NCBI GenBank assembly: GCA_964417925.1
Contig: CAYQJV010000001.1
Location: 22,192-86,191, forward strand
Reading direction: 5' to 3'
Length of the DNA stretch: 64,000 bases
From: an uncultured bacterium
GTDB lineage: Bacteria; Hydrothermota; Tepidihabitantia; B3-TA06; CAYQJV01
Each line of letters opens with the position of its first letter. Within the stretch, counting starts at the first letter, position 1. A program made the translations under genes and the position numbers. The notes beneath the pieces are model-generated. The model was given only the letters and a program-made list of their open reading frames with translations. It was not told the DNA's origin and did no database searches. Below are positions 18,101 to 64,000 of the stretch, one piece after another.

Positions 18101-18724
18101 AACCCATCTTACTGCCTTTTCTTTTACTATTTCTCTAATTGCATTAGCAGGTAATTCAACTTTCAAAAGGTGATTCCATTTAGAATGGAATTTTTCTTTT
18201 ATTACACCTCCATACTGCTTTACCTTTTCAATCACAGGTTCTATATCCATATCAGGATATCCCACAATGATGAATGTATCCATAGAGGAGGAAGTTACAT
18301 TCAATGCATGGGGAAACTTATAATAAGGATGGTATACTCCCACCCAGTTAACAAATGGCTGTGTTTTTATTTTTACAATATCAGTCTTTTTAGCATGCAC
18401 CAGATATGCATAGTTAGGAATATAAAAATATATCTTAACTCCCATAGATTCAAGAAAAGAAGCATACTCACTGTAGATTGGCCCCTTAAACTGTACTATG
18501 TATACTCCATCTTTTCCCTCATAATCATCAACTCTTAAATCTTCAGGTATGTTAGGTTCACCATACCTGGTATCAAACTGTATTCCGCATCCAAGACTTA
18601 TGTATGTGGCATTATTGTAAACACGTGGAACAAACTGTCCAATCTCACCTTTTATGAAGTGTTGATTATACCCAAAAACGAATGTTATTATTCCTATGAT
18701 ACAAATGAACATCTTTTTCCACAT
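15131..18724 (-). CDS. Large S8 subtilisin-like serine protease with T9SS C-terminal sorting domain
   Basis: Catalytic triad motifs GAVLDSGV, HGTHTSCTVLG, GTSMACPVAAG. C-terminus IFDSSGRKVTKL…KVPAGIYFVRF…KVLLVE matches the Por_Secre_tail pattern. N-terminal signal peptide. Confidence 0.8.
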   Translation of the reverse strand: MWKKMFICIIGIITFVFGYNQHFIKGEIGQFVPRVYNNATYISLGCGIQFDTRYGEPNIPEDLRVDDYEGKDGVYIVQFKGPIYSEYASFLESMGVKIYFYIPNYAYLVHAKKTDIVKIKTQPFVNWVGVYHPYYKFPHALNVTSSSMDTFIIVGYPDMDIEPVIEKVKQYGGVIKEKFHSKWNHLLKVELPANAIREIVKEKAVRWVEEFHMPRLFNNQAQWVVQTWEENNRKVWDMGIKGEGQIGAVLDSGVRTSHDMFRDPSVPIDDFGDYPNHRKIIAYQKPAYDPEGIITFGDEPYYGFYHGTHTSCTVLGCDDPVGGSSVYDGMAPEAKLYFLDGGSASHPGGIIHAVSLEYSLSIAYKGNSAGGARVISNSWGKQTTRAYDHDCMEADMTMWDYPDYLVMFAAGNNPPNPYTGSPANAKNVVAVGATLNGSAATTLASFTTKGPTWDGRIKPDIVVPGVVMSAYGGNDNGYTNGEGTSMACPVAAGNALLIRQYFTDGYYPSGSKTLSNSFIPSAALLKAMLINSVELDVSGISIPDEKGGWGRPKLDNVLYFSGDKRKLKVVDFKEGLRTGYAFSAEIEVVDGTEPFRVTLVWTDYPAVEYASPALVNDLDLEVISPSNNVYLGNVFEDNESVTGGEPDSKNPVENVFISAPEIGTWKIVVKAQNVPFGPQPFALVVTGGLSDEGMKSVVIEDIIIDDSEEFNPDGNWDPGEKVRLKVKLKNLGDVDLEDVNATISSSASCVLIEDADAQYGDIPSGGTSVGDGFVVEASESTPEATWVDFEMKIEASNFSTVMKFKVMIGIPRMEYADHNIGNVLLTVTQHGSIGFLDINEKGQGFKYPKTGQNWLYHASFAAGNSEDYVCDRFYPNTPNNAGNRDWEVTDVPDGRVVFMRKISDQDSKAIFNDAGHPSPKGLWVEQYGYAWSSPEYEDFVILRYKIFNKGSNTIDGLYAGIIADFDMQDAGSNEGGVDEDTRLAYMTITGTNTPYVGVCVLAPEYRNLSLLENPVYVYQGTNNVWHDTTLFKFLKGDISVSESEKSTDWSVVVSTGPFDISPGDSVIVAFAFVGGDDLNDIKNNAAAAKELYDRTNFETGIEEDVVVNAPFTVEYTNPSIKYIVFDVFTPKNTYLDVEIFDSSGRKVTKLYSGYASGKIQIKWNGYTQSGYKVPAGIYFVRFRSEKAVRTYKVLLVE

Positions 18725-18773
18725 GTTACCTCCTTTTCTACTGGATTTTTACACAACAGTTTTTTATAACTTT

Positions 18774-21308
18774 TCACCTCCTTTCATATATGTTTACAAA
18801 TTTAACAAGCCTTCTTTCCTCTCCTTTCTCCATTTGAATGAAATATACTCCTGCGGCAAGGAAAATTGATTTTACATCTTCCCTATTTTTCAGTTTTCTC
18901 ACAATTCTTCCATTTGACGTATATATCTTAACACAATCATAATATTCCATAGCCTTCCGCAGAACATCATTTATCTTGCCCACGGAACTAAATATTATGC
19001 CTTTCTCTTCATATTGGTATGCAACCTCCTTTATTCCTGTAGAAATGGGTAACCCAAACTTAATTGTTATCAAATATTCTCCATACTCATAAAGGTCTAC
19101 AGAAAACTCTACCCTCTCTCCTTTAGCCAGTGAGCTTTTTGCCTTTACCAAGAATCCCTCAATGGCTTTACCTTCAGAAAAGGGAGGCACATTCTCAAAA
19201 TAAGAGATTGAATCTTTTACAATAACCTTTCCATCCTCACTTTTCAATACACCTAATAATGCATATACCTTATCAGGTGCAGAGTTTTTAATCAATAGAT
19301 TGAGTATCGCTGTTTCCCCGGGATCAAGCAATCCATTTTGATTTCCTCCTTCTAAGGTATCTGCTATTTCATAAGAATAATAGGTTATCTCTCCTTTTAA
19401 AGGAAATTTTATATCTCCGGTCACCACCACAGCATATGGTTGAGGACCAAAAGGAATGTTTTTACCTACTATCTTTACTATCCATGCACCTTCCTCAGGA
19501 ATCTCTATCCATACCAATTCCTCCACGTTGATCTCATCCCTTACCCCACCCTCAACAGAATATCCATTTTCAAAGTTATTACCGTAATAGACCTTTCCCG
19601 AAGGAGAGATAACTTCAAGGTCTAAGTCATTAACGAGCTGTTTTGAGGAAGAAAGTTCTGCGGGATAATCAGTCCAAACAAGTACTATTTTTAAAGGTAA
19701 ACCAGAAGATACTTCCACTGTAAAACTTTTTTCTTCATCGGTCTCTATACCTATGGTATCGTCTATTAAATAAAGTTTCCGCATATCCTCTGGGAAATAG
19801 AGCACGCTGTCAAGACATACCCTACCCCATCCACCTTTATTTGATGGCATAGAATACGAAGATGAAAGATGAACTGTAGAAGCCATTACCATTGCTTTCA
19901 ATAAAGCAGCAGAAGGAATAATCCGTTCTTCCTCATCGGGTACTCCACCTGGATAGTACCCATCTTTTAGATATTGATAAATCAATGCCGTAGCTCCTGC
20001 AACAGCAGGACATGACATACTGGTGCCAGACATTGAGTAATAATTCTCAGGACCTCCACCATAGGCTGAGATCAATACACCAGGAGCAACAACTGTGGGT
20101 TTTATTCTACCGTCATTGGTAGGACCAGGATCTGAAAACCCAGTAACCCTATCCGCACCACCACCATTAAAAGTAGCTCCCACTGTAATAATATCTTTAG
20201 CGGTTCCAGGAGGAGTAACCCTATAATCATCATTTCCTGCAGAAAAAAGAATAAGAAAATCTTTATGATTCCACATAAATTGATCGGTCTGATAACACTC
20301 AATATTGTATCCCCCTTCATATGCATTCCATCCCCAACTGTTGGAACTTAAAATTGCCCTTCCTGCTTCATTTCCTTCATAAGGCATTATATACATGTCA
20401 TTAAGATCATCCGGAGGATAAACACTATAACCTCCTGCACCTATGTCAACAAAATATATTTTTGCATCTTTTGCCATTCCATCATATGGAGCACTACCAT
20501 CTACATATTCATCATTGCCTGCTACAGTACACGCAGTATGCGTTCCATGATAATAGGCACTTGATGCATCTCCAAAGGATGCTAAGGAAGATCCAGGTTT
20601 ATATGCAATTATTTTTCTATGTTCAGGATAATCCCCCCAGTTCTCTATAGGATGTTCAGGATCTCTAAACATATTGTGATCTGTGTATATACCTGAATCA
20701 GAGGTACTTACGATAACCCCTTTACCTGTTATGCCTTTCTCCCATATTCTTCGGTTATCTTCTTCCCAGGTCTGCACCACCCATTGACATCGATTGTTAA
20801 ATAACACATGCTCTCTACATGGTTCAATCCATCTTATCCATTTAATCCTCGCTATCTTGTGTATATCTTCTCCATCTCCCTTAATTACAATAATCTTGTT
20901 CCATTGATTTATCGAAACCCTTAAAATTTCAAAACCTTTCTCTTGAAGAAAAGGAAGCACTTCATCTACCACTGCCTCTTCAAAAAGAAGAACCTTGAAA
21001 CTATCCACTACCGGTTTTATAATCTCGTGGTTATACTTCATTCTGCCTTCATAGGGAACGACCCCTGAAATATCCATATCCTTTAGAATCTCAGAAGTAA
21101 TCTTTCCATATACCAAGAAAGCGTTGTCTGGTATGTATCCTTTTACCTTTAATCCCTTGCTCTCCATTAGATTACGTGTATTTTTAAAAACTCCTTTCAC
21201 CTCAACAATGTAGTAATTTTCTTCATAAGTTATTTCAAATCTTCCAGTTATGGAAAGGTCTCCATTAAGGAGATGGAGAATAGAAAATAAAAAAAAGATG
21301 TTATTCAT
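18774..21308 (-). CDS. S8 subtilisin-like serine protease with T9SS-type C-terminal domain (paralog of the previous gene)
   Basis: Triad motifs VSTSDSGI, HGTHTACTVAG, GTSMSCPAVAG. C-terminus KIYTSNGRIVRKL…AAGVYFIQME…LVKFVNI is CTD-like. Signal peptide. Confidence 0.75.
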   Translation of the reverse strand: MNNIFFLFSILHLLNGDLSITGRFEITYEENYYIVEVKGVFKNTRNLMESKGLKVKGYIPDNAFLVYGKITSEILKDMDISGVVPYEGRMKYNHEIIKPVVDSFKVLLFEEAVVDEVLPFLQEKGFEILRVSINQWNKIIVIKGDGEDIHKIARIKWIRWIEPCREHVLFNNRCQWVVQTWEEDNRRIWEKGITGKGVIVSTSDSGIYTDHNMFRDPEHPIENWGDYPEHRKIIAYKPGSSLASFGDASSAYYHGTHTACTVAGNDEYVDGSAPYDGMAKDAKIYFVDIGAGGYSVYPPDDLNDMYIMPYEGNEAGRAILSSNSWGWNAYEGGYNIECYQTDQFMWNHKDFLILFSAGNDDYRVTPPGTAKDIITVGATFNGGGADRVTGFSDPGPTNDGRIKPTVVAPGVLISAYGGGPENYYSMSGTSMSCPAVAGATALIYQYLKDGYYPGGVPDEEERIIPSAALLKAMVMASTVHLSSSYSMPSNKGGWGRVCLDSVLYFPEDMRKLYLIDDTIGIETDEEKSFTVEVSSGLPLKIVLVWTDYPAELSSSKQLVNDLDLEVISPSGKVYYGNNFENGYSVEGGVRDEINVEELVWIEIPEEGAWIVKIVGKNIPFGPQPYAVVVTGDIKFPLKGEITYYSYEIADTLEGGNQNGLLDPGETAILNLLIKNSAPDKVYALLGVLKSEDGKVIVKDSISYFENVPPFSEGKAIEGFLVKAKSSLAKGERVEFSVDLYEYGEYLITIKFGLPISTGIKEVAYQYEEKGIIFSSVGKINDVLRKAMEYYDCVKIYTSNGRIVRKLKNREDVKSIFLAAGVYFIQMEKGEERRLVKFVNIYERR

Positions 21309-51413: not shown

Positions 51414-51431
51414 TGTAACATTTATGTTACA
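51414..51431. promoter_or_regulatory. UAS-1: perfect 18-bp palindrome TGTAACATTTATGTTACA (predicted enhancer-binding-protein site)
   Basis: Inverted repeat TGTAACA-N4-TGTTACA with C-rich 5' flank ccctcaaaaag. Confidence 0.6.
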
Positions 51432-51486
51432 TTTAAATACAGTCTAAGCCTCATAATTACAGATACATACAAAAACCCTTCAAAAG

Positions 51487-51504
51487 TGTAACATTTGTGT
51501 TACA
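51487..51504. promoter_or_regulatory. UAS-2: palindrome TGTAACATTTGTGTTACA (one central substitution)
   Basis: Same half-sites. Centre is 73 bp from UAS-1. Confidence 0.6.
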
Positions 51505-51558
51505 TTCAAAGGCAATTTAAGTAATGTAGTTACAAAGCATACAAATACATTTAAAAAC

Positions 51559-51576
51559 TGTAACATTTATGTTACA
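51559..51576. promoter_or_regulatory. UAS-3: palindrome TGTAACATTTATGTTACA
   Basis: Centre is 72 bp from UAS-2 and about 80 bp upstream of the -24 element. Confidence 0.6.
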
Positions 51577-51646: not shown

Positions 51647-51662
51647 TGGCATGTTTTTCGCT
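51647..51662 (+). promoter_or_regulatory. Predicted sigma-54 promoter (TGGCAT-N5-TCGC; -24 GG / -12 GC)
   Basis: GG and GC are at consensus spacing. The 29-bp block aatctttggcatgtttttcgctatataat is identical to the block at 63289-63317. Confidence 0.6.
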
Positions 51663-51711: not shown

Positions 51712-51739
51712 TTGACAAAAGAATAAAAAAATATAAAAT
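51712..51739 (+). promoter_or_regulatory. Sigma-70-like promoter (TTGACA-N16-TAAAAT) inside the sigma-54 5'UTR, upstream of A1
   Basis: TTGACA at 51712-17, TATAAAAT at 51732-39. SD AGGAAG. The same element recurs at 54809-36 before A2. Confidence 0.45.
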
Positions 51740-51752
51740 TAGGAAGTGTAAA

Positions 51753-52163
51753 ATGAGAGGAGTAATAAAAATATTGGTTTTAGGTATGGTGGTGATGGTT
51801 ATAGCCCAGCCTTCCTATGATGAGAGGTGGGAAGGAGAGGCAGAAGGCACAGTAGTGGTGGATGGAGATACAATTGAGCCATGGGCTCACTGGACTGCCT
51901 GGGTTGAATATGATTATGTGCCTGGTAAGGATACTATTTGGGGAGTATGGCAGGATACGGAGACAGATGCATATGGAAATATATATGGTCATAGAAATGA
52001 GTCTGATGGTTCCGTTTCTGGAACATGGGATTGTGCTAATTATAATGTCTCTGGAGGATGGTCCGGAACCGCCACTGGTGGCGTAGGTAGTAAAGGCTCA
52101 GGAAAGTGGTGGATAAATGGGGAAGATAGTACAGGATGGTGGGAAGGTGAAAGAAAGGAGTAA
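51753..52163 (+). CDS. Small secreted Trp/Asp/Gly-rich protein A1 (136 aa, unknown family)
   Basis: Signal peptide MRGVIKILVLGMVVMVIAQP. Mature part is rich in W, D, G, E (WEGEAEG, GTWDC, WWINGEDSTGWWEGE). First 64 residues are identical to A2. Confidence 0.7.
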   Translation: MRGVIKILVLGMVVMVIAQPSYDERWEGEAEGTVVVDGDTIEPWAHWTAWVEYDYVPGKDTIWGVWQDTETDAYGNIYGHRNESDGSVSGTWDCANYNVSGGWSGTATGGVGSKGSGKWWINGEDSTGWWEGERKE

Positions 52164-52168
52164 AAATA

Positions 52169-52206
52169 AAGAGGGGGAGAGTTAAAAGGCTCTCTCCCTC
52201 TTTTTA
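52169..52206 (+). terminator. Intrinsic terminator/attenuator between A1 and B1
   Basis: AAGAGGGGGAGAG-ttaaaagg-CTCTCTCCCTCTT (12-13 bp stem, one G·U) followed by TTTTT. Confidence 0.6.
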
Positions 52207-52242
52207 AGGAGGGAATATGATGATGTTTTTACTTTTTTTTCA

Positions 52243-54795
52243 ATGATTATAAAAGATGATTTCCTTATATCTAAGGATAATCCAGTGCCATCTTCAAAAT
52301 CAAAGGTCTATGGGAAAGGTAGCAAAAAGGGAATCACAATTGTATGGCAAGATGAAAGGCTTGGAGGTGCATTTATAAAAGGAGATTATGCAGAAATTTT
52401 TTTCCAGAGTTTTGATTCCTTGAGGATGAAAATAGGAGGTAATAGAAGACTCGACATTACCCCTGAATGGAGGGTAAGAGTAGTGGGTGGTATAGGATAC
52501 TTTGATAAGGATGTTTCATTTCTCTGGAATACGGGAGATGGATTGTATTTTTGTAAGTATTCTAATAAAGGGGAACTTAAAATAAAAAGAAAAAGGATAA
52601 TCAGTGATGAAGAGTTTTATGGAAACTTGCGTCCTGATAAACCTGTTGGTTATTCAACTAATGAGATAAATAAAGGATTGGTATGCTTTACTGTGAGTTG
52701 TAAAAATGAAGGAGATAGAGTTTATGCTCTCTGTATCAATTCATGTGGTGAAGTTGTTCTTCCCATATTTACTGTAGATAGTATGCTTCCCGGAACCCCT
52801 TATTTCTGGAATGCAAAAGGTGCTATTTCAGATAGGGCATTTGGAGTTATTTATTGGGAAGGTGGGGTTGAGTATCGGATTAAGATATATACTCTTGATG
52901 GAAAATTTATTGATAAAATAATTTTGGGAAAGGGAGAGGGAACTCCCTATATTGAGATGGTAATGGATACCATTTATGTTGTGTGGTGTGAGTATCCTGA
53001 GATGAGCGTGTGGCTTGAGAAGTATGTTTTGAGAGAAGGTGGGGTTTCAAGGGAGTTTAAGGAGATGTTAAGCAAGGATGCATTGTGGTCTTCAAACATG
53101 CAGGTTGCTTTTGAATGGTGGGATAGGGATGAAGGACCTGTGGAAATTCCTTCTCTGGTTGTGATGACCGCATGGCATGACTGGGATGAAAAGAAGATAA
53201 AGTGCAGGGTATATTCAGGAGCAACTGGTGGTGAAATTGCAGGTGGTTCTTTTTCTCCCTCCGTTTCTGATACTGCAACTCCTGACTTTTCCCTTTTCTA
53301 TGGTGCAGGTAGGTTTCACATAGCATATGTTGACGACAGTAACCGGGTGATTGATGTTGCAACATATCTTACTCCTGATACCGAGCTTGTGTTTGCAGGT
53401 CCTCAGGTTGTAAGTGATGACAGCTGTGGTGAAGGATGGAGTGATGCAAGGCTTGCGGTTAACAGTAATGGAGATTTTGCAATTCTTTACTGGTCACCGG
53501 AAGGAAAGGCATTTGTAAAGTTTTTTGACAGAGATGGAAATCAGATATCCAAAGAGATAGATATTTCTACTCTCTTCACAACAAGATGTCCTTCAATGAT
53601 AGCTCCAATGATAGCAATGGATAATGAAAGAAATTTAATGGTAATAGCTTTGGAGGATTGGCTGGAGACTCTTCCGCCTATAAGGATAGAGTTTTATGGA
53701 TTGATTGTTAAGCCTTCAGGAGAAATAAAGAGGTTCAATATAGGGAGGTATCCTGAGGAGCTATACATAGGCGATAGTTATCTCACCTGTAATTCAAAAG
53801 GGGATTTCCTTTTCCTGTGGGATGAATTTCCATTTGGTTCTGAGGAAGAGAGAAATGTTATAAAGGGCAGGTTTTTTGATGCAAATGGAAGGCCAAAGAC
53901 AGATGTTTTTACTCTCAAGTTTCCTCTTGGCCCTATACACCCCACTGGAGCTGATGTTTTTGAGAATGGAGGGGCGGTTGTGGCGGCTGCAATGTCAAAT
54001 GCTGCACGCTCATGGGCAGTTGTGATAGACAGCACCGGTAATCCTTTGACAGAGTTAATAGAGTTTATACGCACCTATCCCGTTATTGCCTGTGATGGGA
54101 GGAATAGATGGGTGATGGCGGGATTAAATGTAAAGCCAAACTACATGGTTTTTGATAGAAAGGGCAATGTGATAAAGGATTTGCAGGTGATAGATGCATA
54201 TACATTTCCTTGGCCTTCTTTCTTTGGTCCTCGCCAGTTGTGGTGTGATATGGATACATCAGGGAGGTTTATAATCTACTGGACAGATTTTACTGAGGAT
54301 GCAAATCCTGATGTAAGGGCACAGATATTTTCAAGGGATGGTGACCCGGTATCAGAGATATTTGAGGTTCATAATCCTGATGCATTTCCTTATGAGTATC
54401 AGCTTTCTACCTGGCAGGGACTTGGAGTGACATCGGATAGGATTTATTTTATGTGGCTTGACAATCGCAGGATAAAGGGTTGGGACATATATGCAAAGGT
54501 AACGGACTGGGAGTATCCAACAGGAATTAAAGAAAAGAGAGAAAGTAAAAACTTAGATATAGAGTATTTGGGACCCCATATTTTAATAAGGTTTTCCCTT
54601 TCTTTTCCTCAGAATTTATCTATCAAACTCTACGATGTTTCAGGAAGAGTGGTAAAAAGCATCTTTTTAAAGGCAAAGAAAGGAGAAAATACAATTGAGA
54701 TAGAAAAAAATTTCCCTCCTGGAGTGTATTTTTTGAGAATAGAAGGGAAGGAAAAAGAATATAGCACTAAGATTCTCATTGTAAAAGGGAAATGA
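52243..54795 (+). CDS. Large beta-propeller-repeat protein B1 with T9SS C-terminal sorting domain. The 5' end is frame-disrupted relative to its SD-positioned ATG at 52217
   Basis: C-terminus LSIKLYDVSGRVVKSIFL…PGVYFLRIEG…KILIVKGK matches the Por_Secre_tail pattern. Internal repeats GDF-hhh-W…(I/V)xGRFFDxNGxP. SD AAGGAGGG at 52207-14 serves the ATG at 52217, whose frame stops at 52244 unless the T8 run (52233-40) gains one T. Confidence 0.7.
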   Translation: MIIKDDFLISKDNPVPSSKSKVYGKGSKKGITIVWQDERLGGAFIKGDYAEIFFQSFDSLRMKIGGNRRLDITPEWRVRVVGGIGYFDKDVSFLWNTGDGLYFCKYSNKGELKIKRKRIISDEEFYGNLRPDKPVGYSTNEINKGLVCFTVSCKNEGDRVYALCINSCGEVVLPIFTVDSMLPGTPYFWNAKGAISDRAFGVIYWEGGVEYRIKIYTLDGKFIDKIILGKGEGTPYIEMVMDTIYVVWCEYPEMSVWLEKYVLREGGVSREFKEMLSKDALWSSNMQVAFEWWDRDEGPVEIPSLVVMTAWHDWDEKKIKCRVYSGATGGEIAGGSFSPSVSDTATPDFSLFYGAGRFHIAYVDDSNRVIDVATYLTPDTELVFAGPQVVSDDSCGEGWSDARLAVNSNGDFAILYWSPEGKAFVKFFDRDGNQISKEIDISTLFTTRCPSMIAPMIAMDNERNLMVIALEDWLETLPPIRIEFYGLIVKPSGEIKRFNIGRYPEELYIGDSYLTCNSKGDFLFLWDEFPFGSEEERNVIKGRFFDANGRPKTDVFTLKFPLGPIHPTGADVFENGGAVVAAAMSNAARSWAVVIDSTGNPLTELIEFIRTYPVIACDGRNRWVMAGLNVKPNYMVFDRKGNVIKDLQVIDAYTFPWPSFFGPRQLWCDMDTSGRFIIYWTDFTEDANPDVRAQIFSRDGDPVSEIFEVHNPDAFPYEYQLSTWQGLGVTSDRIYFMWLDNRRIKGWDIYAKVTDWEYPTGIKEKRESKNLDIEYLGPHILIRFSLSFPQNLSIKLYDVSGRVVKSIFLKAKKGENTIEIEKNFPPGVYFLRIEGKEKEYSTKILIVKGK

Positions 54796-54808
54796 AAAGG
54801 AAGAAAAA

Positions 54809-54836
54809 TTGACAAAAAATAAAAAAAATATAAAAT
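54809..54836 (+). promoter_or_regulatory. Sigma-70-like promoter (TTGACA-N16-TAAAAT) for A2-B2. No UAS or sigma-54 element in this copy
   Basis: TTGACA at 54809-14, TATAAAAT at 54829-36. Duplicate of the 51712-39 element. Confidence 0.45.
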
Positions 54837-54840
54837 AGGG

Positions 54841-55254
54841 GTGGTGAGAAGAGTAATAAAAATATTGGTTTTAGGTATGGTGGTAATGGTTATAGCCCAG
54901 CCTTCCTATGATGAGAGGTGGGAAGGAGAGGCAGAAGGCACAGTAGTGGTGGATGGAGATACAATTGAGCCATGGGCTCACTGGACTGCCTGGGTTGAAT
55001 ATGATTATGTGCCTGGTAAGGATACTATCTGGGGTATATGGTGGGATGATGAGGGAGATACAGGGAGGATATATGGACACCGAGATGAAGCAAACGACTC
55101 TGTTTTTGGAACATGGGATTGTATCAACTGTGATGTATCTGGGGAATGGGAGGGAAAGGCAAATTATCCTACGACAGATAATGCACAAGGAGAGTGGTGG
55201 GTAACAAGTGGTGGAACTGGGGATGGCACATGGAGTGGGCATAGAGAAGAATAA
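54841..55254 (+). CDS. Small secreted Trp-rich protein A2 (paralog of A1; GTG start, or GTG at 54844)
   Basis: Identical signal peptide and N-terminal half to A1. C-terminal half diverged (IWWDDEGDTGRIYGHRDE…GEWWVTSGGTGDGTWSGH). Confidence 0.7.
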   Translation: MVRRVIKILVLGMVVMVIAQPSYDERWEGEAEGTVVVDGDTIEPWAHWTAWVEYDYVPGKDTIWGIWWDDEGDTGRIYGHRDEANDSVFGTWDCINCDVSGEWEGKANYPTTDNAQGEWWVTSGGTGDGTWSGHREE

Positions 55255-55260
55255 AAACAT

Positions 55261-55282
55261 GGGAGCCGGAAATCCGGCTCCC
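55261..55282 (+). other. GC-rich hairpin without U-tract between A2 and B2 (stability/processing element rather than terminator)
   Basis: GGGAGCCGG-aaat-CCGGCTCCC followed by ATAAAAAGGAGG (SD of B2). Confidence 0.45.
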
Positions 55283-55300
55283 ATAAAAAGGAGGTAAAAA

Positions 55301-57898
55301 ATGATATTTTTATTGTTTTTAATAGTTATAAAAGATGATTTCCTGGTATCTAAGGATAATCCATGCCATTCTTTTAAGTGTCAGGTTTTTGGAAAAGGAG
55401 AGGTGGATGGTTATACCATTGTATGGAGAGATGGGAGAACCGGAACAATTAATTTACCGAGTTTTTATGAGGAAATTTTCTTTCAGTGTTTTGATTCAAA
55501 TAGAGTTAAAATTGGGGATAACACAAGACTTGGGACATCTTCTGAGTGGAAGACAAGATATCTCGGGGGCATAGGATACTTCAAAGATGCAGTATCATTT
55601 ATATGGAATGAAGGATCCGGGATGGGGCAGGCAGATATTCAGGATACCATGGGAACCATTTACTTCTGTAAGTATGATAACAATAGGAATATGGTGATAA
55701 AACCTAAAAAACTCATTGATCATAATGATATTCGTATTTATCCATTTTATCCAGTACATTATTCTACCAATGGATGTAACAGAGGACTGGTATGTTTTGG
55801 GGAGATTGGAGAAAAGAAAACAAACTTTTATGCCTTGGTTATTGATTCTTGTGGAGAAATTCTTCTTCCTTTATTTGTTGTGGATACGGTTTCTGGGTCC
55901 CATCCAATTGTGAGGGGAGCAATATCAGACAGGTATTTTGCAATATTTTATTCCACCACTTTCAATCCTGCTATTTCCAGGATGAAGGTCTATTCAATTG
56001 ATGGAAAGGAAATTGATAGGATAGTTTTTGGAGAAAGCTTCAAGGCTTCTGCTATTAAAGTATTTCTTGACACAATTTATGTTGTTTGGAGTCCGTATTT
56101 TTATGATAGGGGTGAAGAGCTATGGTTGGAGAAGTATGTGGTTAAGGATGATGGTGTTGAGAGGGTATTTCAGGAGATTTTGATGAATAGATATCCAGCA
56201 AATATGCAGGTTGCTTTTGGATGGTGGGATAGGGATGAAGGACCTGTGGAGGTTCCTTCTCTGGTTGTGATGATCGCGTGGCATGACTGGGATGAGAAGA
56301 AGATAAAGTGCAGGGTGTATTCAGGAGCAACTGGTGGTGAAATTGCAGGTGGTTCTTTTTCTCCCTCTGTTTCTGATACTGCAACTCCTGATTTTTCTCT
56401 TTTCTATGGTGCAGGAAGGTTTCACATAGCATATGTTGATGACAGTAACCGGGTGATTGATGTTGCAACATATCTTACTCCTGATACCGAGCTTGTGTTT
56501 GCAGGTCCTCAGGTTGTAAGTGATGATACCTGTGGCAGGGGATGGAGTGATGCAAGGCTTGCAGTAAACAGCAATGGAGACTTTGCAATTTTTTACTGGT
56601 GCTATTATTATGACAGTCTGCGTGCCTTTGTGAAATTTTTTGATCAAAATGGAGATGAACTTTCAAAAGAGATTGAGGTTCCTCTTCGTTTCACAAGGTT
56701 TACCAATGTAACGACGGCTATGGATGATAGGAGAAATTTGATGATAATACATGCTCCTGAGGTTCTGGAAAAAAATGAGAATGGTCGTCCCACAAGGATA
56801 AGGTTTTATGGGGTTATTGTTAATCCCTCTGGAGAGGTCAAAAAGTTTACCATAGGGGAGTATCCACCTGATGAGTTTTACATGTCCTGGCATAGTTATG
56901 TTGCATGTAATTCTAAAGGGGATTTTCTTATACTCTGGTGTCATTTTCCTGGAGGGGATGGTCCTGAAAATGTTATAAGGGGCAGGTTTTTTGATGCAAA
57001 TGGAAGACCGAAAACAGATGTTTTTACTCTCAAGTTTCCCATAGGTCCCATAATGCCCACTGGGGCTGTTGTTTTTGAGGATGGAGGGGCGGTTGTAGGA
57101 GCTGCACTGTCAAATGCTGCACGCTCATGGGCGGTTGTGATAGACAGCATCGGTAATCCTTTAACAGAATTAATAGAGTTTATACGCACTTATCCTGTTA
57201 TTGCCTGTGATGGGAGGGATAGATGGGTGATGGCAGGATTAGATGTAAAGCCAAACTGCATGGTTTTTGATAGAAAAGGAAATGTGATAAGGGATTTGCA
57301 GGTGATAGATGCATATACATTTGCCTGGCCATCCCCAATTTTCCCTCAGCAGTTATGGTGTGATATGGATACATCAGGGAGGTTTATAATTTACTGGACA
57401 GATTTTACCGAGGATGCAAATCCGGATGTCAGGGCACAGATATTTTCAAGGGATGGTGACCCGGTATCAGAGATATTTGAGGTTCATAATCCTGATGCAT
57501 TTCCTTATGAGTATCAGCTTTCTACCTGGCAGGGACTTGGAGTGACATCGGATAGGATTTATTTTATGTGGCTTGACAATCGCAGGATAAAGGGCTGGGA
57601 CATATATGCAAAGGTAACGGACTGGGAGTATCCAACAGGAATTAAAGAAAAGAGAGAAAGTAAAAACTTAGATATAGAGTATTTGGGACCCCATATTTTA
57701 ATAAGGTTTTCCCTTTCTTTTCCTCAGAATTTATCTATCAAACTCTACGATGTTTCAGGAAGAGTGGTAAAAAGCATCTTTTTAAAGGCAAGGGAAGGAG
57801 AAAACAGGGTTGAAATAAAAAAGGATTTTCCCCAGGGAGTGTATTTTTTGAGGATAGAAAAAGGGAAAGTTTTACACAAAAAAATAATAATATTGTAA
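55301..57898 (+). CDS. Large beta-propeller-repeat protein B2 with T9SS C-terminal sorting domain (paralog of B1)
   Basis: SD AAGGAGGT 6 nt before the ATG. Short hydrophobic N-terminus MIFLLFLIVI. C-terminal 310 aa are almost identical to B1, including the CTD. Confidence 0.75.
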   Translation: MIFLLFLIVIKDDFLVSKDNPCHSFKCQVFGKGEVDGYTIVWRDGRTGTINLPSFYEEIFFQCFDSNRVKIGDNTRLGTSSEWKTRYLGGIGYFKDAVSFIWNEGSGMGQADIQDTMGTIYFCKYDNNRNMVIKPKKLIDHNDIRIYPFYPVHYSTNGCNRGLVCFGEIGEKKTNFYALVIDSCGEILLPLFVVDTVSGSHPIVRGAISDRYFAIFYSTTFNPAISRMKVYSIDGKEIDRIVFGESFKASAIKVFLDTIYVVWSPYFYDRGEELWLEKYVVKDDGVERVFQEILMNRYPANMQVAFGWWDRDEGPVEVPSLVVMIAWHDWDEKKIKCRVYSGATGGEIAGGSFSPSVSDTATPDFSLFYGAGRFHIAYVDDSNRVIDVATYLTPDTELVFAGPQVVSDDTCGRGWSDARLAVNSNGDFAIFYWCYYYDSLRAFVKFFDQNGDELSKEIEVPLRFTRFTNVTTAMDDRRNLMIIHAPEVLEKNENGRPTRIRFYGVIVNPSGEVKKFTIGEYPPDEFYMSWHSYVACNSKGDFLILWCHFPGGDGPENVIRGRFFDANGRPKTDVFTLKFPIGPIMPTGAVVFEDGGAVVGAALSNAARSWAVVIDSIGNPLTELIEFIRTYPVIACDGRDRWVMAGLDVKPNCMVFDRKGNVIRDLQVIDAYTFAWPSPIFPQQLWCDMDTSGRFIIYWTDFTEDANPDVRAQIFSRDGDPVSEIFEVHNPDAFPYEYQLSTWQGLGVTSDRIYFMWLDNRRIKGWDIYAKVTDWEYPTGIKEKRESKNLDIEYLGPHILIRFSLSFPQNLSIKLYDVSGRVVKSIFLKAREGENRVEIKKDFPQGVYFLRIEKGKVLHKKIIIL

Positions 57899-57968: not shown

Positions 57969-57996
57969 TTGCATTTTTAGAAAAAATATGTATACT
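57969..57996 (+). promoter_or_regulatory. Sigma-70-type promoter (TTGCAT-N16-TATACT) for the small-ORF + kinase-EBP operon
   Basis: TTGCAT at 57969-74, TATACT at 57991-96. SD AAGGAGG at 58003-09, ATG at 58015. Confidence 0.45.
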
Positions 57997-58014
57997 TTCA
58001 AAAAGGAGGCTGTA

Positions 58015-58332
58015 ATGGTTTCATTACCGAAAAGTACTGTATACGGGGATGGTGTTAAAATCAACTCTTTACATGCAATACAGCTTCTTGACATGGAAAT
58101 TACATCTGTTAAAAGAAAAAGACGTGTAAAAAGTTCTTTGAGCACAATGTTCTTTATCAACCTCCTCTACAAAAAAGAATGCAATAAAATTACTGTCCAG
58201 ATGGATCCTGTAATAACTCACAAGAGTTATGACTACATAAATCATTGCTATAGAAACAGCAATAATAAAAAAGATAGTTTCCAAAAATTAAAGAAAATTT
58301 ACAACGAAGTAATAAACTTAACTAACAGGTGA
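58015..58332 (+). CDS. Small hypothetical protein (105 aa) translationally coupled to the kinase-EBP gene
   Basis: Strong SD then ATG at 58015 (the ORF track's 57988 start lacks an SD). Stop TGA overlaps the downstream GTG start (GTGA at 58329-32). No recognisable motif. Confidence 0.45.
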   Translation: MVSLPKSTVYGDGVKINSLHAIQLLDMEITSVKRKRRVKSSLSTMFFINLLYKKECNKITVQMDPVITHKSYDYINHCYRNSNNKKDSFQKLKKIYNEVINLTNR

Positions 58333-61300
58333 GCAGGTATAAAATAGTAGAAAAGATAGGGGAGGGAAATTACACCGTAGTATATAGAGCATATGACATC
58401 CTTTCTCAGAAGGAAGTGGCATTAAAAACTCTAAAGAACAAAGGAATTGATCCCGTGATTCTTAAAAGAGAGTATGTATTTTTAAAAAAATGCTCCCATC
58501 CTTATATAGTAAAGGTATATGAAGCAGGGTACTTAAAAGACACTCCTTATTTTACAATGGAGTACATAAAAGGAGAGGATATAAAGCAGTATCTAAAAAA
58601 GAAACGAAACGAGCAAAATTTCTGGACAATTTTTTCCACGCTCTTTTTAAAAATAGTTGCAGGAGTATCCCACTTTCACTTTAAAGGAATAATACATGGC
58701 GATCTCAAACCAAACAATATTCTTGTAGATGAACAGGACAATGTGAAAATAATAGATTTTGGTTTTGCCTTATTAAAAGGAGAAAAACCAGAGGGAACTA
58801 CAGTAGTATACACTGCTCCTGAAATCCTTAAAGGAAACCTTGATTATAGAGCAGACATTTATGCTATAGGGATGATAATGTACGAAATTATAGAAGGTAA
58901 AGATTTATTTACTCAACTCACCCCTGTAAATATTGTAAAAGAAAAGTTAAAATTTATTCCTTCTTTTTCAAAACCTATACCTTCTGAACTTAAAAATCTT
59001 GTGAAAAATATGCTTTCTCCAGAACCTTTCTTCAGACCGGATGCAAAAGAAATATACAGCACACTTTCAAAACTATCTGCAGAAAAAATAGAGATACAAT
59101 CCCAAGAGGAAATGACCACAATGCCAGTGGTAGGAAGAGAAGAACTAATAGATACTGCTTTAAAAGAGGGTAACAAAATAATATTCTATGGAGACCATGG
59201 TTATGGAAAATCAACTTTATTAAAAGAAATATCTTTTAGGGCTTGGCTTAAGAAAAAAAGGGTATTTGAAATCAATAAAGATAAAGAATACCTGCTTCTT
59301 GAATATTTAAAAACTCACTATAAAGTTAAAGCAACATCCAGGGAACATCTGTTTGCAGATATTGTATCCTCCCTTGAGAAAGAGTACGACATCTTCATAT
59401 TTGATGACCTACATCTATACTCTGAAGATGATATTGAGTTTGCAAGGTATCTTTATCTTTCCACAAAGAAGAATGTAATATTCTCAGCATTACCTTTAGA
59501 GTCCTTAAAAAAGAAGTTTGAAGAACCAGGCAGAATAGCGATAAAAAATATTCCTTCATTATCACCTAAAGAAATAAAAACTCTTGTATATATTCTTTTC
59601 CCAACCCTATCTCAGAAAGAGGAACTTACAGAAGAGCTCTATAGAATAACAAAAGGAATACCTCTGCTTTTAAAAAGCATTATTGAGATATTTTTAAAAG
59701 AAAAAATCCTTAAAAAAGAAGAGGATAAATTTATTTTTAATAGAGAGAAAATCAAAGGGTTAGAACTACCGAAAACTGTAAAAGAATTTGTAAAGAATTC
59801 ATTCAAAGAATTAAATGAAGATGAAAAAAACTTCTTACTTGCTGTCCACCTATTAAAAGACTTTGCATCCTTATCCAACATCTATCAAATGGTACAACTA
59901 AAAGAGGATAAGATATATTCCATAGCAGAAAGTTTAAAAATAAAAGAACTTATAAAAATAATCCAAAAAAACAACACAATTATCTACACACTTTCAACTG
60001 GAATTTATATCCCCTTTATAAAAAAACTAAAAAGTTATAAAGACCTTTTGGAAAAAAGTATAAAAATAATTGAAAAGGAAAACAGCACCAAAAAAATATA
60101 TCTTCTTGCAGAATACAACCATATTCTCGGTAAAAAAGAAAAGGCAGTTGATTATCTCTACACTGCAGTAAATACGGCAAGAAAAACCTCCCTCCTTTGT
60201 GAAGCAAAGAAATTTATAGAAATACTCATCCAGAACTATCCTATAGAAGACATACCAAACCCTTGCAAATTTTGTATTGTAGCCGGAGACATCTATCTAC
60301 TGCTTCATGAATTAAAAAAGGCTCAGACATTTTTCTCAATATCATTTTCCTTCTGCCCTCAAGAAAGAAAAAGTGATATTCATCACAGGATTGCTCAAAC
60401 AATGTTTTATCAGGGAAATATCAAAGATGCAAAACTGGAAACAATAAAGGGATTAAAATATGCAAAAGATAAACATGAATTATTGAATTTTCTATCATGG
60501 CTTTACATCTTTGATGGTGAAAAGCAAAGAGCAGAAAGAATCTTAAACCATGTAATAGCACATACAAATAACAAAGAGATACTTTCAAATGCATACTATA
60601 ACCTTGCAATACTTTACAAAAAATATAACCAATTTATTAAATGTGCTACGGTGCTTGGGAAAAGCATAAAATATCTAAAGGAAAAAGACATCTATGGTTA
60701 TGCGTTAAGACTTGAAATTGCTTGTGAAATGCTACTTCAGAAGGGATTTTTTAGAAATGCAGAAAGAATACTTTTAAAAATAAAAAATATTTGGGGAAAA
60801 ATTAAAAACTTAAATAAATATACATCAACTTTAATAAACATGGGAAGAATAAAAAGATTTGAAAATCCCAAAAAAGCACTTGAATACTTCCATCAAGCAG
60901 AAATCATGAGTCTCAAAATAAAAGATTATGAACTTTTTGCAAGTGCCCTTCTTAACTCTGCATTCTTATTTGAAACATACGGAAGAACTGAACAGGCTCT
61001 TGAAAGCATAGGTAAACTTCTTACATACGAACAAAAAATTTCAGAAGAGAGATTTTGTAAAGGAGTTTTTTATTATACAAAGTATCTACTTTTAACGAAT
61101 CAGATAGAAAAAGCAGAAGAATTTCTTAAAACCATCAAAAGGAAAGACTCTTCTTGGTGCCTTTTATCACAGACATTGGTTCTTTTTGAAAAAAATGATG
61201 ATAAAAGATTCAGAAAGGAGATGGTAGAAATACTATTAAGGGAAAATACCGAAGAAGAAGTCTCTGAAGCTCTTAATATTCTTTTTGAATATCATTACAA

Positions 61301-63149
61301 TAAAAATGATTTGGAAAGATGTAAAACCATCCTTGAAAGGATTAAAAAGATATCATATGCGAAAAAAAATCCTTTTAAAGAAGTTGAGATAATGTTAAAA
61401 ACAGCAATCCTTTTAAAAGATAAAAAACTACTTGAAGAAACAATAAAAAGAGCAGAAAGAATTCACTATTTCAATGCAAAACCCCTTGCCCTATCTATAC
61501 TTGGAAAGATATATTATGAGAAAGGAGATTACTTGAAGGCATATAAACATCTAAAAGAAGCAAGGGAAAATTTTGAGAGAATAGGAATGATAAATACCGC
61601 AGAAAAGATAAAAAAATATGAAGAAAAAGCAAAGGAAAAAAGTATAGAAATCCAAGTACCGGAAAGGAAATACTTAGATACACTTGAAAGAATAAGCGCT
61701 GTGGTAAAGGACTATTTTGGAAAAGATGAGTTTTTCCTTGAACTTTTAAACATTCTGATAGAAGCAACCTCTGCAGAAAGAGGAATGGTCATGATAGGGG
61801 AGAACCAAGAAAATCTATACTGCGTGGGAACTACAAATATAGATGAAGTTACTTATGTCGATGCAACCGCATTTTCAAAGACTGTATTAAAACATGTAAG
61901 AGAAGGTAAAAGAGGGATATATACAGAAGATGCAACAAAAGATCCCAGGTTTAAAGATGCAGAAAGTGTCAAACTAAAAGAGATAAAGTCAATTCTATGC
62001 GTTCCATTAATGGCAAAAGATGAAGTTATAGGAGTTCTCTATCTTGATAGTTCACTCAAAAAAGGACTCTTTACAGAAGAAACTCTAAAATTCATGGAGT
62101 CTGTATCAAATATAATAGGCACATTTGTGTATACCTCTTATACCGCAGAGAAAAAGTTTAAAGAACTTGAAAGGATAAAACTAAAAACTCAAGAAATAGT
62201 AATAGGAAGATCAAGAAAAATAAAAAGGATATTCAAGGAAATCCAACAAATTGCTCAAACAGATTCAAACATCCTCCTTATAGGAGAAACAGGAACAGGT
62301 AAAGGGGTAATTGCACGGTTAATTCATGAAAAGAGCAGGCGGAGCGAATATCTCTTTCAGTATATAAACTGTGGAGCAATTCCCTATGAACTATTTGAAG
62401 CAGAACTATTTGGATACAAAAAAGGAGCCTTCACAGGTGCAAGAGAAACAAGAAAGGGCTTACTTGAAGAGGCTCATAAAGGAACCGTTTTTTTGGATGA
62501 AATAGCAAATATTCCAATATCTGTCCAGGCAAAGTTGCTGGATGTAATAGAGCGAAAAAAAATAAGAAGGCTTGGAGAAAATATAGAAAGGGATATTGAT
62601 GTAAGGTTTATATTTGCAACAAACAGAGATTTAGAACAAGAAATAGAAAAGGAAAAGTTCAGAAATGACCTGTATTACCGAATTTCAACAACTGTTATTG
62701 AAATTCCACCACTAAGAGAAAGAAAAGAAGATATTCCTATATTTGTAGATTTCTTCATAGATAAATTTTCAAAAGAACTTAACAAAAATATAAAGGGAGT
62801 TTCACAAGAAGCCATGGAAATACTATTAAAATACCACTGGCCAGGAAATATAAGAGAGCTTTCCAATGTAATTGAACGGGCTGTAATTATGGCAGATAAA
62901 GAAACCATAGGCAAAAATCACATAGATAGAGGAATAATTGAATCAGTAATACCACCAGCCCCTCTAAAAATTGAAACAGAAAAAGTAAAGAAAGAGATGA
63001 TAATAAAGGCACTTCAACTCCACAAAGGTAACATCAAAAAAACAGCCCAATACCTGCACATAACCCGTCAACACCTCTCCAGGCTTTTAAAAAGATACAA
63101 CATTGACCCAGCCCAGTATAAACACCCCCAAAACCCCCAAAAAGTGTAA
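58329..63149 (+). CDS. Multidomain one-component regulator: Ser/Thr protein kinase + P-loop NTPase + TPR array + GAF + sigma-54 activator AAA+ + Fis-type HTH (1606 aa)
   Basis: Kinase motifs VALKTL, HGDLKPNN (58695-718), DFG, APE. P-loop GDHGYGKST (59190-216). Long TPR-like helical repeats. GAF-like block LLNILIEATSAERGMVMIG…VLYLDS. Sigma-54 AAA+ Walker A GETGTGKG (62283-306), GAFTGA (62424-41), Walker B VFLDEI, WPGNIRELSNVIERA. C-terminal HTH KTAQYLHITRQHLSRLLKRY. Confidence 0.8.
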   Translation: MSRYKIVEKIGEGNYTVVYRAYDILSQKEVALKTLKNKGIDPVILKREYVFLKKCSHPYIVKVYEAGYLKDTPYFTMEYIKGEDIKQYLKKKRNEQNFWTIFSTLFLKIVAGVSHFHFKGIIHGDLKPNNILVDEQDNVKIIDFGFALLKGEKPEGTTVVYTAPEILKGNLDYRADIYAIGMIMYEIIEGKDLFTQLTPVNIVKEKLKFIPSFSKPIPSELKNLVKNMLSPEPFFRPDAKEIYSTLSKLSAEKIEIQSQEEMTTMPVVGREELIDTALKEGNKIIFYGDHGYGKSTLLKEISFRAWLKKKRVFEINKDKEYLLLEYLKTHYKVKATSREHLFADIVSSLEKEYDIFIFDDLHLYSEDDIEFARYLYLSTKKNVIFSALPLESLKKKFEEPGRIAIKNIPSLSPKEIKTLVYILFPTLSQKEELTEELYRITKGIPLLLKSIIEIFLKEKILKKEEDKFIFNREKIKGLELPKTVKEFVKNSFKELNEDEKNFLLAVHLLKDFASLSNIYQMVQLKEDKIYSIAESLKIKELIKIIQKNNTIIYTLSTGIYIPFIKKLKSYKDLLEKSIKIIEKENSTKKIYLLAEYNHILGKKEKAVDYLYTAVNTARKTSLLCEAKKFIEILIQNYPIEDIPNPCKFCIVAGDIYLLLHELKKAQTFFSISFSFCPQERKSDIHHRIAQTMFYQGNIKDAKLETIKGLKYAKDKHELLNFLSWLYIFDGEKQRAERILNHVIAHTNNKEILSNAYYNLAILYKKYNQFIKCATVLGKSIKYLKEKDIYGYALRLEIACEMLLQKGFFRNAERILLKIKNIWGKIKNLNKYTSTLINMGRIKRFENPKKALEYFHQAEIMSLKIKDYELFASALLNSAFLFETYGRTEQALESIGKLLTYEQKISEERFCKGVFYYTKYLLLTNQIEKAEEFLKTIKRKDSSWCLLSQTLVLFEKNDDKRFRKEMVEILLRENTEEEVSEALNILFEYHYNKNDLERCKTILERIKKISYAKKNPFKEVEIMLKTAILLKDKKLLEETIKRAERIHYFNAKPLALSILGKIYYEKGDYLKAYKHLKEARENFERIGMINTAEKIKKYEEKAKEKSIEIQVPERKYLDTLERISAVVKDYFGKDEFFLELLNILIEATSAERGMVMIGENQENLYCVGTTNIDEVTYVDATAFSKTVLKHVREGKRGIYTEDATKDPRFKDAESVKLKEIKSILCVPLMAKDEVIGVLYLDSSLKKGLFTEETLKFMESVSNIIGTFVYTSYTAEKKFKELERIKLKTQEIVIGRSRKIKRIFKEIQQIAQTDSNILLIGETGTGKGVIARLIHEKSRRSEYLFQYINCGAIPYELFEAELFGYKKGAFTGARETRKGLLEEAHKGTVFLDEIANIPISVQAKLLDVIERKKIRRLGENIERDIDVRFIFATNRDLEQEIEKEKFRNDLYYRISTTVIEIPPLRERKEDIPIFVDFFIDKFSKELNKNIKGVSQEAMEILLKYHWPGNIRELSNVIERAVIMADKETIGKNHIDRGIIESVIPPAPLKIETEKVKKEMIIKALQLHKGNIKKTAQYLHITRQHLSRLLKRYNIDPAQYKHPQNPQKV

Positions 63150-63162
63150 CATTTATGTTACA
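63145..63162. promoter_or_regulatory. UAS-4: palindrome TGTAACATTTATGTTACA overlapping the regulator's stop codon
   Basis: TAA stop (63147-49) is inside the left half-site. C-rich flank cccccaaaaag. Confidence 0.6.
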
Positions 63163-63217
63163 TTTTGAGGCGGTCTAAGTTACGTAATTAAGTATATATA
63201 CAAATACCCCCAAAAAG

Positions 63218-63235
63218 TGTAACATTTATGTTACA
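63218..63235. promoter_or_regulatory. UAS-5: palindrome TGTAACATTTATGTTACA
   Basis: Centre is 73 bp from UAS-4 and about 70 bp upstream of the -24 element. Confidence 0.6.
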
Positions 63236-63294: not shown

Positions 63295-63310
63295 TGGCAT
63301 GTTTTTCGCT
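63295..63310 (+). promoter_or_regulatory. Predicted sigma-54 promoter (TGGCAT-N5-TCGC), second copy
   Basis: 29-bp block identical to 51641-51669. SD AAGGAGGT and ATG at 63371 lie downstream. Confidence 0.6.
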
Positions 63311-63370: not shown

Positions 63371-63532
63371 ATGAAAAAGTTGTTAGCATTGCTTGTTTTT
63401 GTTGGTGGTTTGCTTTTTGCTGATCCGCCTTCCCCTTGTGGTGGACCTGGAGATGATCCTCCTGATCCTACACCACCACCTCCTATTCCTATAGACGTAG
63501 AAAATATTGTTGAGGTGATACCGGGGGAGTAA
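63371..63532 (+). CDS. Small secreted Pro/Asp-rich peptide (53 aa precursor)
   Basis: Strong SD. Signal peptide MKKLLALLVFVGGLLFA. Mature DPPSPCGGPGDDPPDPTPPPPIPIDVENIVEVIPGE. The ORF track's 63323 start lacks an SD and sits at the predicted TSS. Confidence 0.55.
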   Translation: MKKLLALLVFVGGLLFADPPSPCGGPGDDPPDPTPPPPIPIDVENIVEVIPGE

Positions 63533-63735
63533 TGCTTAGAACTGAGGGGGCAATAAGGCTGAAGGCGAGAAAGGGATTAAAGGGATTAGAGATAAAGAAT
63601 GGGGACTATGTACGCATATTCACCACTACCCTGGATGATGAGTTTCTTGCAGAAATCCTTCGTTCTGTACCCAGATGTTATGAAGTACGGATAAAGCATG
63701 AAAGATTTGATGTTGAACTTTCCCTTACGCATTAG
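63532..63735 (+). CDS. Hypothetical 67-aa protein, start overlapping the upstream stop (TAATG)
   Basis: ORF with 1-nt start/stop overlap to the peptide gene. No recognisable motif. Confidence 0.35.
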   Translation: MLRTEGAIRLKARKGLKGLEIKNGDYVRIFTTTLDDEFLAEILRSVPRCYEVRIKHERFDVELSLTH

Positions 63736-63779
63736 CATGGGGAGGGGGTGTTGTCTATGGAGCATAGGAAAGGAGTAAA

Positions 63780-64000
63780 GAATGTTAAGGATGAGTAGGA
63801 GAATAGTTGCCACTATAAGAGAGCCTGATAAGGATAGAAGAGGAAGGGTAGTTGCTGTAATAATAGAACCTTATGAAATAGTATCTTTTAAAGAAATTTT
63901 GAAACTTGCATGCAATGGAACGGTATTTTATGTCAAAAATGGACATTACTTAGAAAGTGTACTGCCTTTTGATAGGGATGGAGATGGAAAGCCTGATTCC
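63780..64000 (+). CDS. Hypothetical protein, 3'-partial (runs off window)
   Basis: SD AGGAG 6-7 nt before the ATG at 63780. Open frame to window end. Not in the ORF track because it has no stop. Confidence 0.3.

Follow-up and report, generated by a model that had tools for sequence, protein, structure and literature searches.

Bacterial enhancer-binding proteins (EBPs) offer a textbook example of an AAA+ motor under modular control, and the inputs of characterised members are receiver, GAF, PAS, V4R or FHA domains. Here we analysed a window of 64,000 nt on contig CAYQJV010000001.1 from an uncultured Hydrothermota bacterium, containing a gene for a 1606-amino-acid (aa) regulator that combines a Hanks-type Ser/Thr kinase, a STAND-type nucleotide-binding oligomerisation module (NOD), a TPR-like helical solenoid, a GAF domain, an EBP-type AAA+ domain and a helix-turn-helix (HTH). 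Its C-terminal ~490 aa share the order GAF, AAA+ (GAFTGA) and HTH_8 with EBPs of the NifA, NorR and FhlA type, and we know of no characterised EBP that has the extra 1130-aa N-terminal kinase-STAND-TPR module. MalT, PH0952 and proteins of the AfsR/PknK type share with the regulator a P-loop NOD (Walker A/B), a GxP-type helical domain, a winged helix and a TPR sensor, and PknK of Mycobacterium tuberculosis has an N-terminal Hanks kinase ahead of its AAA_16/MalT-like region. Proteins of this MalT/AfsR/PknK type end in a LuxR- or SARP-type DNA-binding domain, or in none, and act with the sigma-70 holoenzyme, whereas the output of the regulator is a second ATPase, a sigma-54 AAA+ ring. The HstK-like family of 'trifunctional' kinase/ATP-binding/sensor histidine kinases has the same Pkinase - AAA_16 - (TPR) - GAF chassis; in the regulator, Sigma54_activat and HTH_8 replace the HisKA/HATPase_c, GGDEF, class III cyclase, PP2C or AraC modules of these proteins and their siblings, and its Pfam scan gave no HisKA or HATPase_c match. 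Hanks-type kinase signalling is likewise linked to sigma-54 activators in Myxococcus xanthus, where FHA-domain EBPs are under the control of Ser/Thr kinases acting in trans (Jelsbak et al., 2005, cited in PMC12288465). In M. xanthus, kinase and EBP are separate proteins and FHA is the phospho-Thr reader of the EBP, whereas the kinase of the regulator is covalently attached and no FHA domain was detected by Pfam.

Our analysis suggests that the regulator is probably a sigma-54 activator of the secreted-protein operons on either side of its gene, working as a one-component system with kinase-STAND input. Judged by its sequence, the C-terminal third has all the parts of a NifA-type activator: GAF, AAA+ with GAFTGA and a Fis-type HTH. 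The Sigma54_activat profile (PF00158) matches residues 1291-1457 (E 2e-66) over positions 1-167 of 168 and is followed by AAA_lid_14 (residues 1463-1537, E 7.8e-28). Walker A GETGTGKG (residues 1319-1326; DNA 62283) and Walker B (D1390-E1391) fall in invariant columns of the homologue alignment, as do the arginines of FRxDLYYR (R1445/R1451) and of the GNIRE sensor II motif (R1509), and the sigma-54 contact loop has the canonical sequence GAFTGA (residues 1366-1371; DNA 62424). The profile of the family aligns to the NifA structure 9qq6_C from GAF to HTH. Among NCBIfam models the C-terminal third is nearest to NifA, PrdR and NorR, under every equivalog cut-off; because the best match, TIGR01817 nifA, reaches 359 bits where the cut-off is 528.85, the regulator is no NifA orthologue, and we found no nif genes among the neighbours examined. 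At the other end of the protein, the kinase domain contains VALKTL (K33), HGDLKPNN (residues 123-130; DNA 58695), DFG (143-145) and APE (163-165), and in addition to K33 it retains E48, D125, N130, D143, E165 (the APE Glu) and R236. Its HGD motif makes it a non-RD kinase, which leaves its membership of the superfamily unaffected, and its Gly-rich loop (GEGNYT) is without the third glycine. A first-pass annotation of this DNA had proposed the same composition and order of domains and a complete EBP module; the Pfam boundaries and the residues listed above agree with it, and every motif that it quoted, from VALKTL to GAFTGA, was located in the translated open reading frame (ORF).

The same annotation had compared the P-loop NTPase and TPR region to PknK, MalT and STAND proteins, a comparison that is supported by both the motifs and the predicted fold. 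Pfam AAA_22 matches residues 284-386 (35.9 bits against a cut-off of 27), with Walker A GDHGYGKST at residues 288-296 and Walker B IFIFDD at 355-360 (D359-D360). The GxP-like motif TKGIPLL aligns with GGNP(L/F) of relatives, and a helical domain and winged-helix hairpins come next. The NOD aligns collinearly with the regions that match AAA_16 in homologues (at 2e-19 to 3e-25), and Pfam also gave a TPR_12 match in the regulator. A sequence search of the PDB with residues 255-1130 (NOD-TPR) gave no match. An AlphaFold2 model of the middle region was built from a 25-row alignment (mean pLDDT 78.9, with most 10-residue blocks at 80-96 over about the first 510 residues). In it, an alpha/beta P-loop domain is succeeded by a helical domain and a pair of winged-helix-like beta-hairpin elements, after which ~560 residues form paired helices. 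In a Foldseek comparison of this model with the PDB, the top match was PH0952 (6mfv_A, E 1.7e-13), a STAND ATPase with a TPR sensor, followed by Apaf-1 (E 2e-7), and the structural matches also include MalT. The region, in which a helical domain and a winged helix connect the NOD to a repeat sensor at the C-terminal end, resembles solved STAND proteins in fold.

The evidence for the flanking operons as targets comes from the DNA around the gene (Table 1). An 18-bp palindrome, TGTAACA-N4-TGTTACA, has five perfect copies in the window, grouped in two arrays; at up to three mismatches, 12 matches were counted where 3.4 are expected, and 12 was not attained in any shuffle. Within the arrays the palindromes are 72-73 bp apart, or about seven helical turns, and they resemble the upstream activating sequences of NifA, which follow a TGT-N10-ACA logic. 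Each array precedes a copy of the same 16-mer, TGGCATGTTTTTCGCT, which keeps GG and GC at the correct -24/-12 spacing (GG-N10-GC). The two modules are paralogous (82% identity over ~230 nt), with conservation highest in the palindromes and in a block of 41 nt that surrounds the -24/-12 element. The distance from palindrome to promoter is 11 bp, one helical turn, shorter in the downstream module, and the 11-nt indel between proximal palindrome and promoter would preserve helical phase. The gene is thus flanked on both sides by predicted binding sites and promoters, as had been claimed at the outset. The presumed targets on the upstream side form a tandemly duplicated cassette, of which the first copy encodes a 136-aa protein with a signal peptide and an 850-aa protein ending in Por_Secre_tail, a sorting domain of the type IX secretion system (T9SS), and the second copy 137-aa and 865-aa versions of them. 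On the downstream side, the 53-aa ORF of the second presumed operon is Pro-rich and has a signal peptide. The 850- and 865-aa proteins match no other family, their called starts show no clear N-terminal signal peptide, and a PDB sequence search with the 850-aa protein gave no match.

Table 1. Positions of the regulator gene, its domains and the surrounding elements in the window.
Feature	Position	Strand	Basis and remarks
Upstream enhancer array (predicted), 3 perfect palindromes	51414..51576	.	starts 51414, 51487, 51559; spacing 73 + 72 bp
Sigma-54-type -24/-12 element (predicted) TGGCATGTTTTTCGCT	51647..51662	+	starts 88 bp after proximal palindrome start
Tandemly duplicated two-gene cassette, presumed targets	51753..57898	+	copies 51753-54795 and 54841-57898
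114-aa ORF, Lys-rich	57988..58332	+	strong Shine-Dalgarno AAAAGGAGG; translationally coupled to regulator
Regulator gene (kinase-STAND-TPR-GAF-EBP-HTH)	58329..63149	+	single open frame, 1606 codons, GTG start
Hanks-type Ser/Thr kinase domain	58338..59057	+	Pfam Pkinase residues 4-243, E 1.4e-48
STAND-type NOD	59136..60008	+	residues ~270-560; AAA_22, homologue alignment, fold matches
TPR-like helical-repeat solenoid (~560 aa), presumed sensor arm	60036..61715	+	residues ~570-1129
GAF domain	61728..62120	+	residues 1134-1264; Pfam GAF E 1.2e-11, GAF_2 E 2.6e-10, both above cut-off
Sigma-54 interaction AAA+ domain and lid	62199..62939	+	residues 1291-1537; Sigma54_activat, AAA_lid_14
Fis-type HTH_8 DNA-binding domain	62982..63098	+	residues 1552-1590; Pfam E 8.9e-8, 32.2 bits against cut-off 22
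Downstream enhancer array (predicted), 2 perfect palindromes	63145..63235	.	starts 63145, 63218; spacing 73 bp
Second, identical -24/-12 element (predicted) TGGCATGTTTTTCGCT	63295..63310	+	starts 77 bp after proximal palindrome start
Second presumed target operon	63371..64000	+	53-aa, 67-aa and start of 99-aa ORF (runs off window; continued in L017)

A similar layout recurs beside some homologues. In the 21 kb of the contig of the WOR-3 homologue P0349 (L014), GTGTAAY-N5-GTTACAC occurs three times in all, against 0.06 expected. After these sites come TGTCAT-N5-TTGCTATATACT, a clear homologue of the promoter block of the window, and then a Por_Secre_tail gene. On the contig of P0009, a perfect palindrome TGTAAACA-N4-TGTTTACA lies 9 nt past the stop codon of the regulator gene, and a weaker -24/-12-like element precedes a small ORF with a signal peptide. 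Such weaker sigma-54-like elements in homologue loci were found by eye only, and consensus sigma-54 scans of loci L002, L003 and L004 that allowed up to two mismatches did not exceed chance expectation. Por_Secre_tail genes adjoin the regulator in four of the eight contexts examined and are not adjacent in the other four. The end of the regulator gene in the window, GTG TAA (63143-63149), is itself the first half-site of the first downstream palindrome; the WOR-3 homologue likewise has a GTG-TAA gene end within its first site (L014 12984-12989), so that coding end and enhancer are conserved together in both. Downstream of the homologue from Ca. Hatepunaea, at L003 8880-9150, there are two long perfect inverted repeats with arms of ~25 and 30 nt, which could be terminators or a repeat element, and a TGGTAT-N5-TTGCC element lies ~50 nt ahead of the next small ORF.

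Several observations weigh against this reading of the regulator as a kinase-STAND-controlled sigma-54 activator of its neighbours. The TGGCATGTTTTTCGCT element has two mismatches to TGGCAC-N5-TTGCW and overlaps a TATAAT-like hexamer, -24/-12 matches of its quality are not enriched in the window (25 against 19.5 expected), and the promoter block of the WOR-3 homologue has GT in place of the -24 GG. A sigma-70-like TTGACA-16-TAAAAT sequence precedes both small cassette genes. No rpoN (RpoN box) occurs within the 64-kb window, so that sigma-54 itself is presumed for this genome. The proteins of the cassette have no homologues next to other family members, and the adjacency of Por_Secre_tail genes may partly be due to chance, because such genes are numerous in these lineages. 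Within the protein, the NOD is weakly represented in Pfam, by AAA_22 only, and the AAA_16 match of the regulator sits on the P-loop of the EBP.

The regulator belongs, as a divergent member, to a sizeable and uncharacterised family built from known modules. We searched 1.84 billion (1.84e9) representatives clustered at 50% identity exhaustively with HMMER, using a profile whose match states were the kinase and EBP columns only and which was built from exact database sequences. Among the best 150 matches, down to 538 bits, 130 were proteins of the type kinase...GAF-EBP (1144-2180 aa, median 1675), to which all family tallies given here refer, the family itself being larger; the other 20 were tandem-EBP proteins. 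By local domain HMMs the order in the 130 is kinase, usually NOD, GAF, EBP and HTH, and Pfam confirmed the architecture in the six that were run, two short members being without NOD. Named members come from MAGs of WOR-3, Zixibacteria, Calditrichaeota and Ca. Hatepunaea, alongside unclassified ones. The nine proteins with Pkinase and Sigma54_activat recovered by earlier word-indexed searches (with the full protein and with a 9-member profile) had suggested that the fusion is rare, an idea overturned by the exhaustive search; a word-indexed search with a concatenated kinase and EBP profile returned 8000 plain EBPs and was uninformative. The first-pass annotation had called the design very unusual, which cannot be maintained for a family of at least 130 clusters at 50% identity whose members are already in NCBI under the automatic label 'sigma 54-interacting transcriptional regulator' (e.g. 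MCK4353321.1 and MDP8237871.1).

The next-nearest relatives have a kinase-AAA_16-GAF chassis that ends in histidine kinase, GGDEF, cyclase, PP2C or AraC modules, and one of them, P0178, carries the NCBI name PknK. The regulator is thus a recurrent sigma-54 output variant of a common chassis, a product of domain shuffling and not of a new principle. Among the family representatives (P0316-P0464), Walker B of the EBP is kept in all but one of the 130 members, and the sigma-54 contact loop is canonical in 64 and reads GAFTHA or GSFTHA in 38. Ten members are without a recognisable contact loop. A full-text search of the literature found no paper describing a kinase-EBP fusion; the family is unstudied because it is confined so far to MAGs of little-studied phyla. 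Kinase-EBP fusions may have been noted in myxobacterial genome papers, and a study by Perez and colleagues from 2008 reportedly may list such architectures in myxobacteria. Two myxobacterial loci in our genome scan turned out to be plain GAF-EBPs of ~489 aa.

In our model, the regulator would act as a cytoplasmic one-component signal integrator with sigma-54-dependent transcription as its output. Its HTH would bind TGTAAC-N6-GTTACA palindromes in phased arrays ~80-230 bp upstream of the -24/-12 promoters, and its AAA+ ring would remodel the sigma-54 holoenzyme to switch on the two adjacent secreted-protein operons. The N-terminal two thirds would, by analogy, be the input module: a ligand or partner on the TPR arm may provoke ADP-to-ATP exchange in the NOD and thereby oligomerisation, as in MalT and other STAND proteins. 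Oligomerisation could place the non-RD Hanks kinase domains next to each other, so allowing trans-phosphorylation, and could also raise the local AAA+ concentration and favour hexamer assembly. The GAF domain may serve as a second brake, small-molecule or intramolecular, as in NifA, NorR and FhlA. From these parallels we infer that the STAND and kinase modules gate the activator. The substrate of the kinase may be the regulator itself or a separate protein, and sequence alone cannot tell which. In a more specific form of the model, which we propose tentatively and consider rather unlikely, the Hanks kinase would phosphorylate its own GAF-AAA+ linker or AAA+ domain after STAND oligomerisation and so license hexamer assembly. 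If true, this would be a self-contained Ser/Thr phospho-switch for sigma-54 transcription in place of the receiver Asp phosphate or ligand release, and would define a new EBP regulatory class that is devoted to secreted T9SS-sorted proteins and occurs widely among uncultured FCB-related phyla.

The same anatomy could also be read as one STAND sensor with two independent outputs, in which the AAA+ ring is free of phospho-control and the kinase has its targets elsewhere, for instance in secretion components or in the product of the co-translated 114-aa ORF. STAND proteins typically have an N-terminal effector, and the same chassis bears HisKA, GGDEF, cyclase, PP2C and AraC outputs; so many alternative C-terminal modules suggest that the kinase functions regardless of which module it is joined to. 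The family kinases listed are, in addition, mostly non-RD (HGD in 62 of the 130, HRD in 33). The 114-aa ORF, whose stop shares 4 nt (GTGA) with the GTG start of the regulator, could encode a partner or a substrate, but it matches no known family and has no counterpart beside other family members in the contexts examined. Neither FHA nor another phospho-reader is encoded nearby, and the permanent covalent linkage of kinase and EBP in at least 130 clusters suggests functional coupling instead. We consider it unlikely that the two outputs are independent.

It seems still less probable, and indeed quite doubtful, that the kinase is a non-catalytic scaffold or nucleotide sensor resembling a pseudokinase, with STAND and GAF alone controlling the EBP. 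The incomplete Gly-rich loop and the non-RD character of the domain would fit such a role, K, N and the DFG Asp have been lost in the homologue P0007, and 11 of the 130 members are without at least one catalytic residue. However, the regulator itself has the full set of catalytic residues given above, and all five (K/E/D/N/D) are kept in 119 of the 130, the pattern expected of an active enzyme. This retention argues for an active kinase under selection, not for a decayed scaffold, and the kinase of the regulator is thus apparently catalytically active.

We also considered an anti-phage role, as an Avs-like STAND or a kinase-based defence protein, and rejected it as very improbable. STAND NTPases and kinases do occur in defence systems, and PADLOC and NCBIfam gave domain-level matches to mad6/MADS6, PD-T4-6 and RtcR-type models. 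However, these matches span only the generic kinase or EBP domains and lie far under the family cut-offs (152 bits against 460 for MADS6), no defence model matches the NOD or the neighbouring genes, the chromosomal surroundings are housekeeping in nature (DnaE, SecA, PheST, SecD and PdxJ), and the output is a transcription activator with cognate enhancers. Finally, although the source is a MAG and the GTG start has no strong Shine-Dalgarno sequence, the idea that the long ORF is an artefact, either a chimeric assembly or two to three genes merged by sequencing error, is effectively refuted by its unbroken frame, by its presence on a separately assembled Logan contig and by at least 130 representatives that run from kinase to HTH in one chain.

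That contig, L001 (SRR21418557), carries the same 1606-aa ORF, the identical protein (P0001) is present on an NCBI contig of 110.7 kb, and parts of the locus were found in two further sequencing runs. The regulator aligns end to end with the WOR-3 protein P0349 (MCK4353321.1; 29% identity over 1715 columns), and its residues 2-1593 are collinear with a protein of 1785 aa from Calditrichaeota (in QQUF01000016.1), whose Pfam order is identical, with clear AAA_16 and TPR_MalT matches. Because of the Logan copy and these collinear full-length homologues, chimeric assembly and a hidden frameshift can be excluded for practical purposes, and the gene does encode the single fusion polypeptide initially described.

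Some features of the surrounding genes deserve mention in their own right. The two copies of the cassette are ~70% identical as protein, and some 300-nt stretches are 90-96% identical as DNA (53093-53392 and 56199-56498), which suggests recent gene conversion. The sigma-70-type promoters at 51712-51739 and 54809-54836 are near-consensus (11/12 matches), so the first cassette has sigma-54-type and sigma-70-type promoters in tandem and the second copy the sigma-70-type only. A G+C-rich hairpin, GAGGGGGAGAG...CTCTCTCCCTC, with a T run (52170-52205) lies between the genes for the 136-aa and 850-aa proteins; it is absent from the output of the consensus scan and could be an internal terminator or attenuator. 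Past the three small ORFs of the second operon (L017 911-2007) there are hypA (E 2.3e-25) and a gene for an Mrp/NUBPL-type ParA ATPase (E 2.9e-50), a pairing that recalls the archaeal Mrp/MinD-type HypB of [NiFe]-hydrogenase nickel insertion; a sigma-70-like TTGACT-17-TATCAT precedes the pair, and an FTCD gene comes next, FTCD being a neighbour of the WOR-3 homologue as well. Elsewhere in the window (15131-21308, - strand), two large genes for subtilases (Peptidase_S8; 1196 and 843 aa) adjoin each other. The subtilase genes sit amid housekeeping genes (PBP1, a MutL-family protein, PheST, DnaE, SecA, SecD and PdxJ), which confirms the chromosomal context.

With a Hanks kinase and a STAND ATPase as input, the control of EBPs would gain a Ser/Thr phosphorylation step as well as a second nucleotide switch. 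The family is large, with at least 130 clusters at 50% identity, yet it is known so far only from MAGs of little-studied phyla, and the window offers an unusually complete test bed, with an intact regulator, likely binding sites, two likely promoters and likely targets within 12 kb. Its main value is therefore as a well-defined entry point for experiments on the kinase-STAND-GAF-EBP family.

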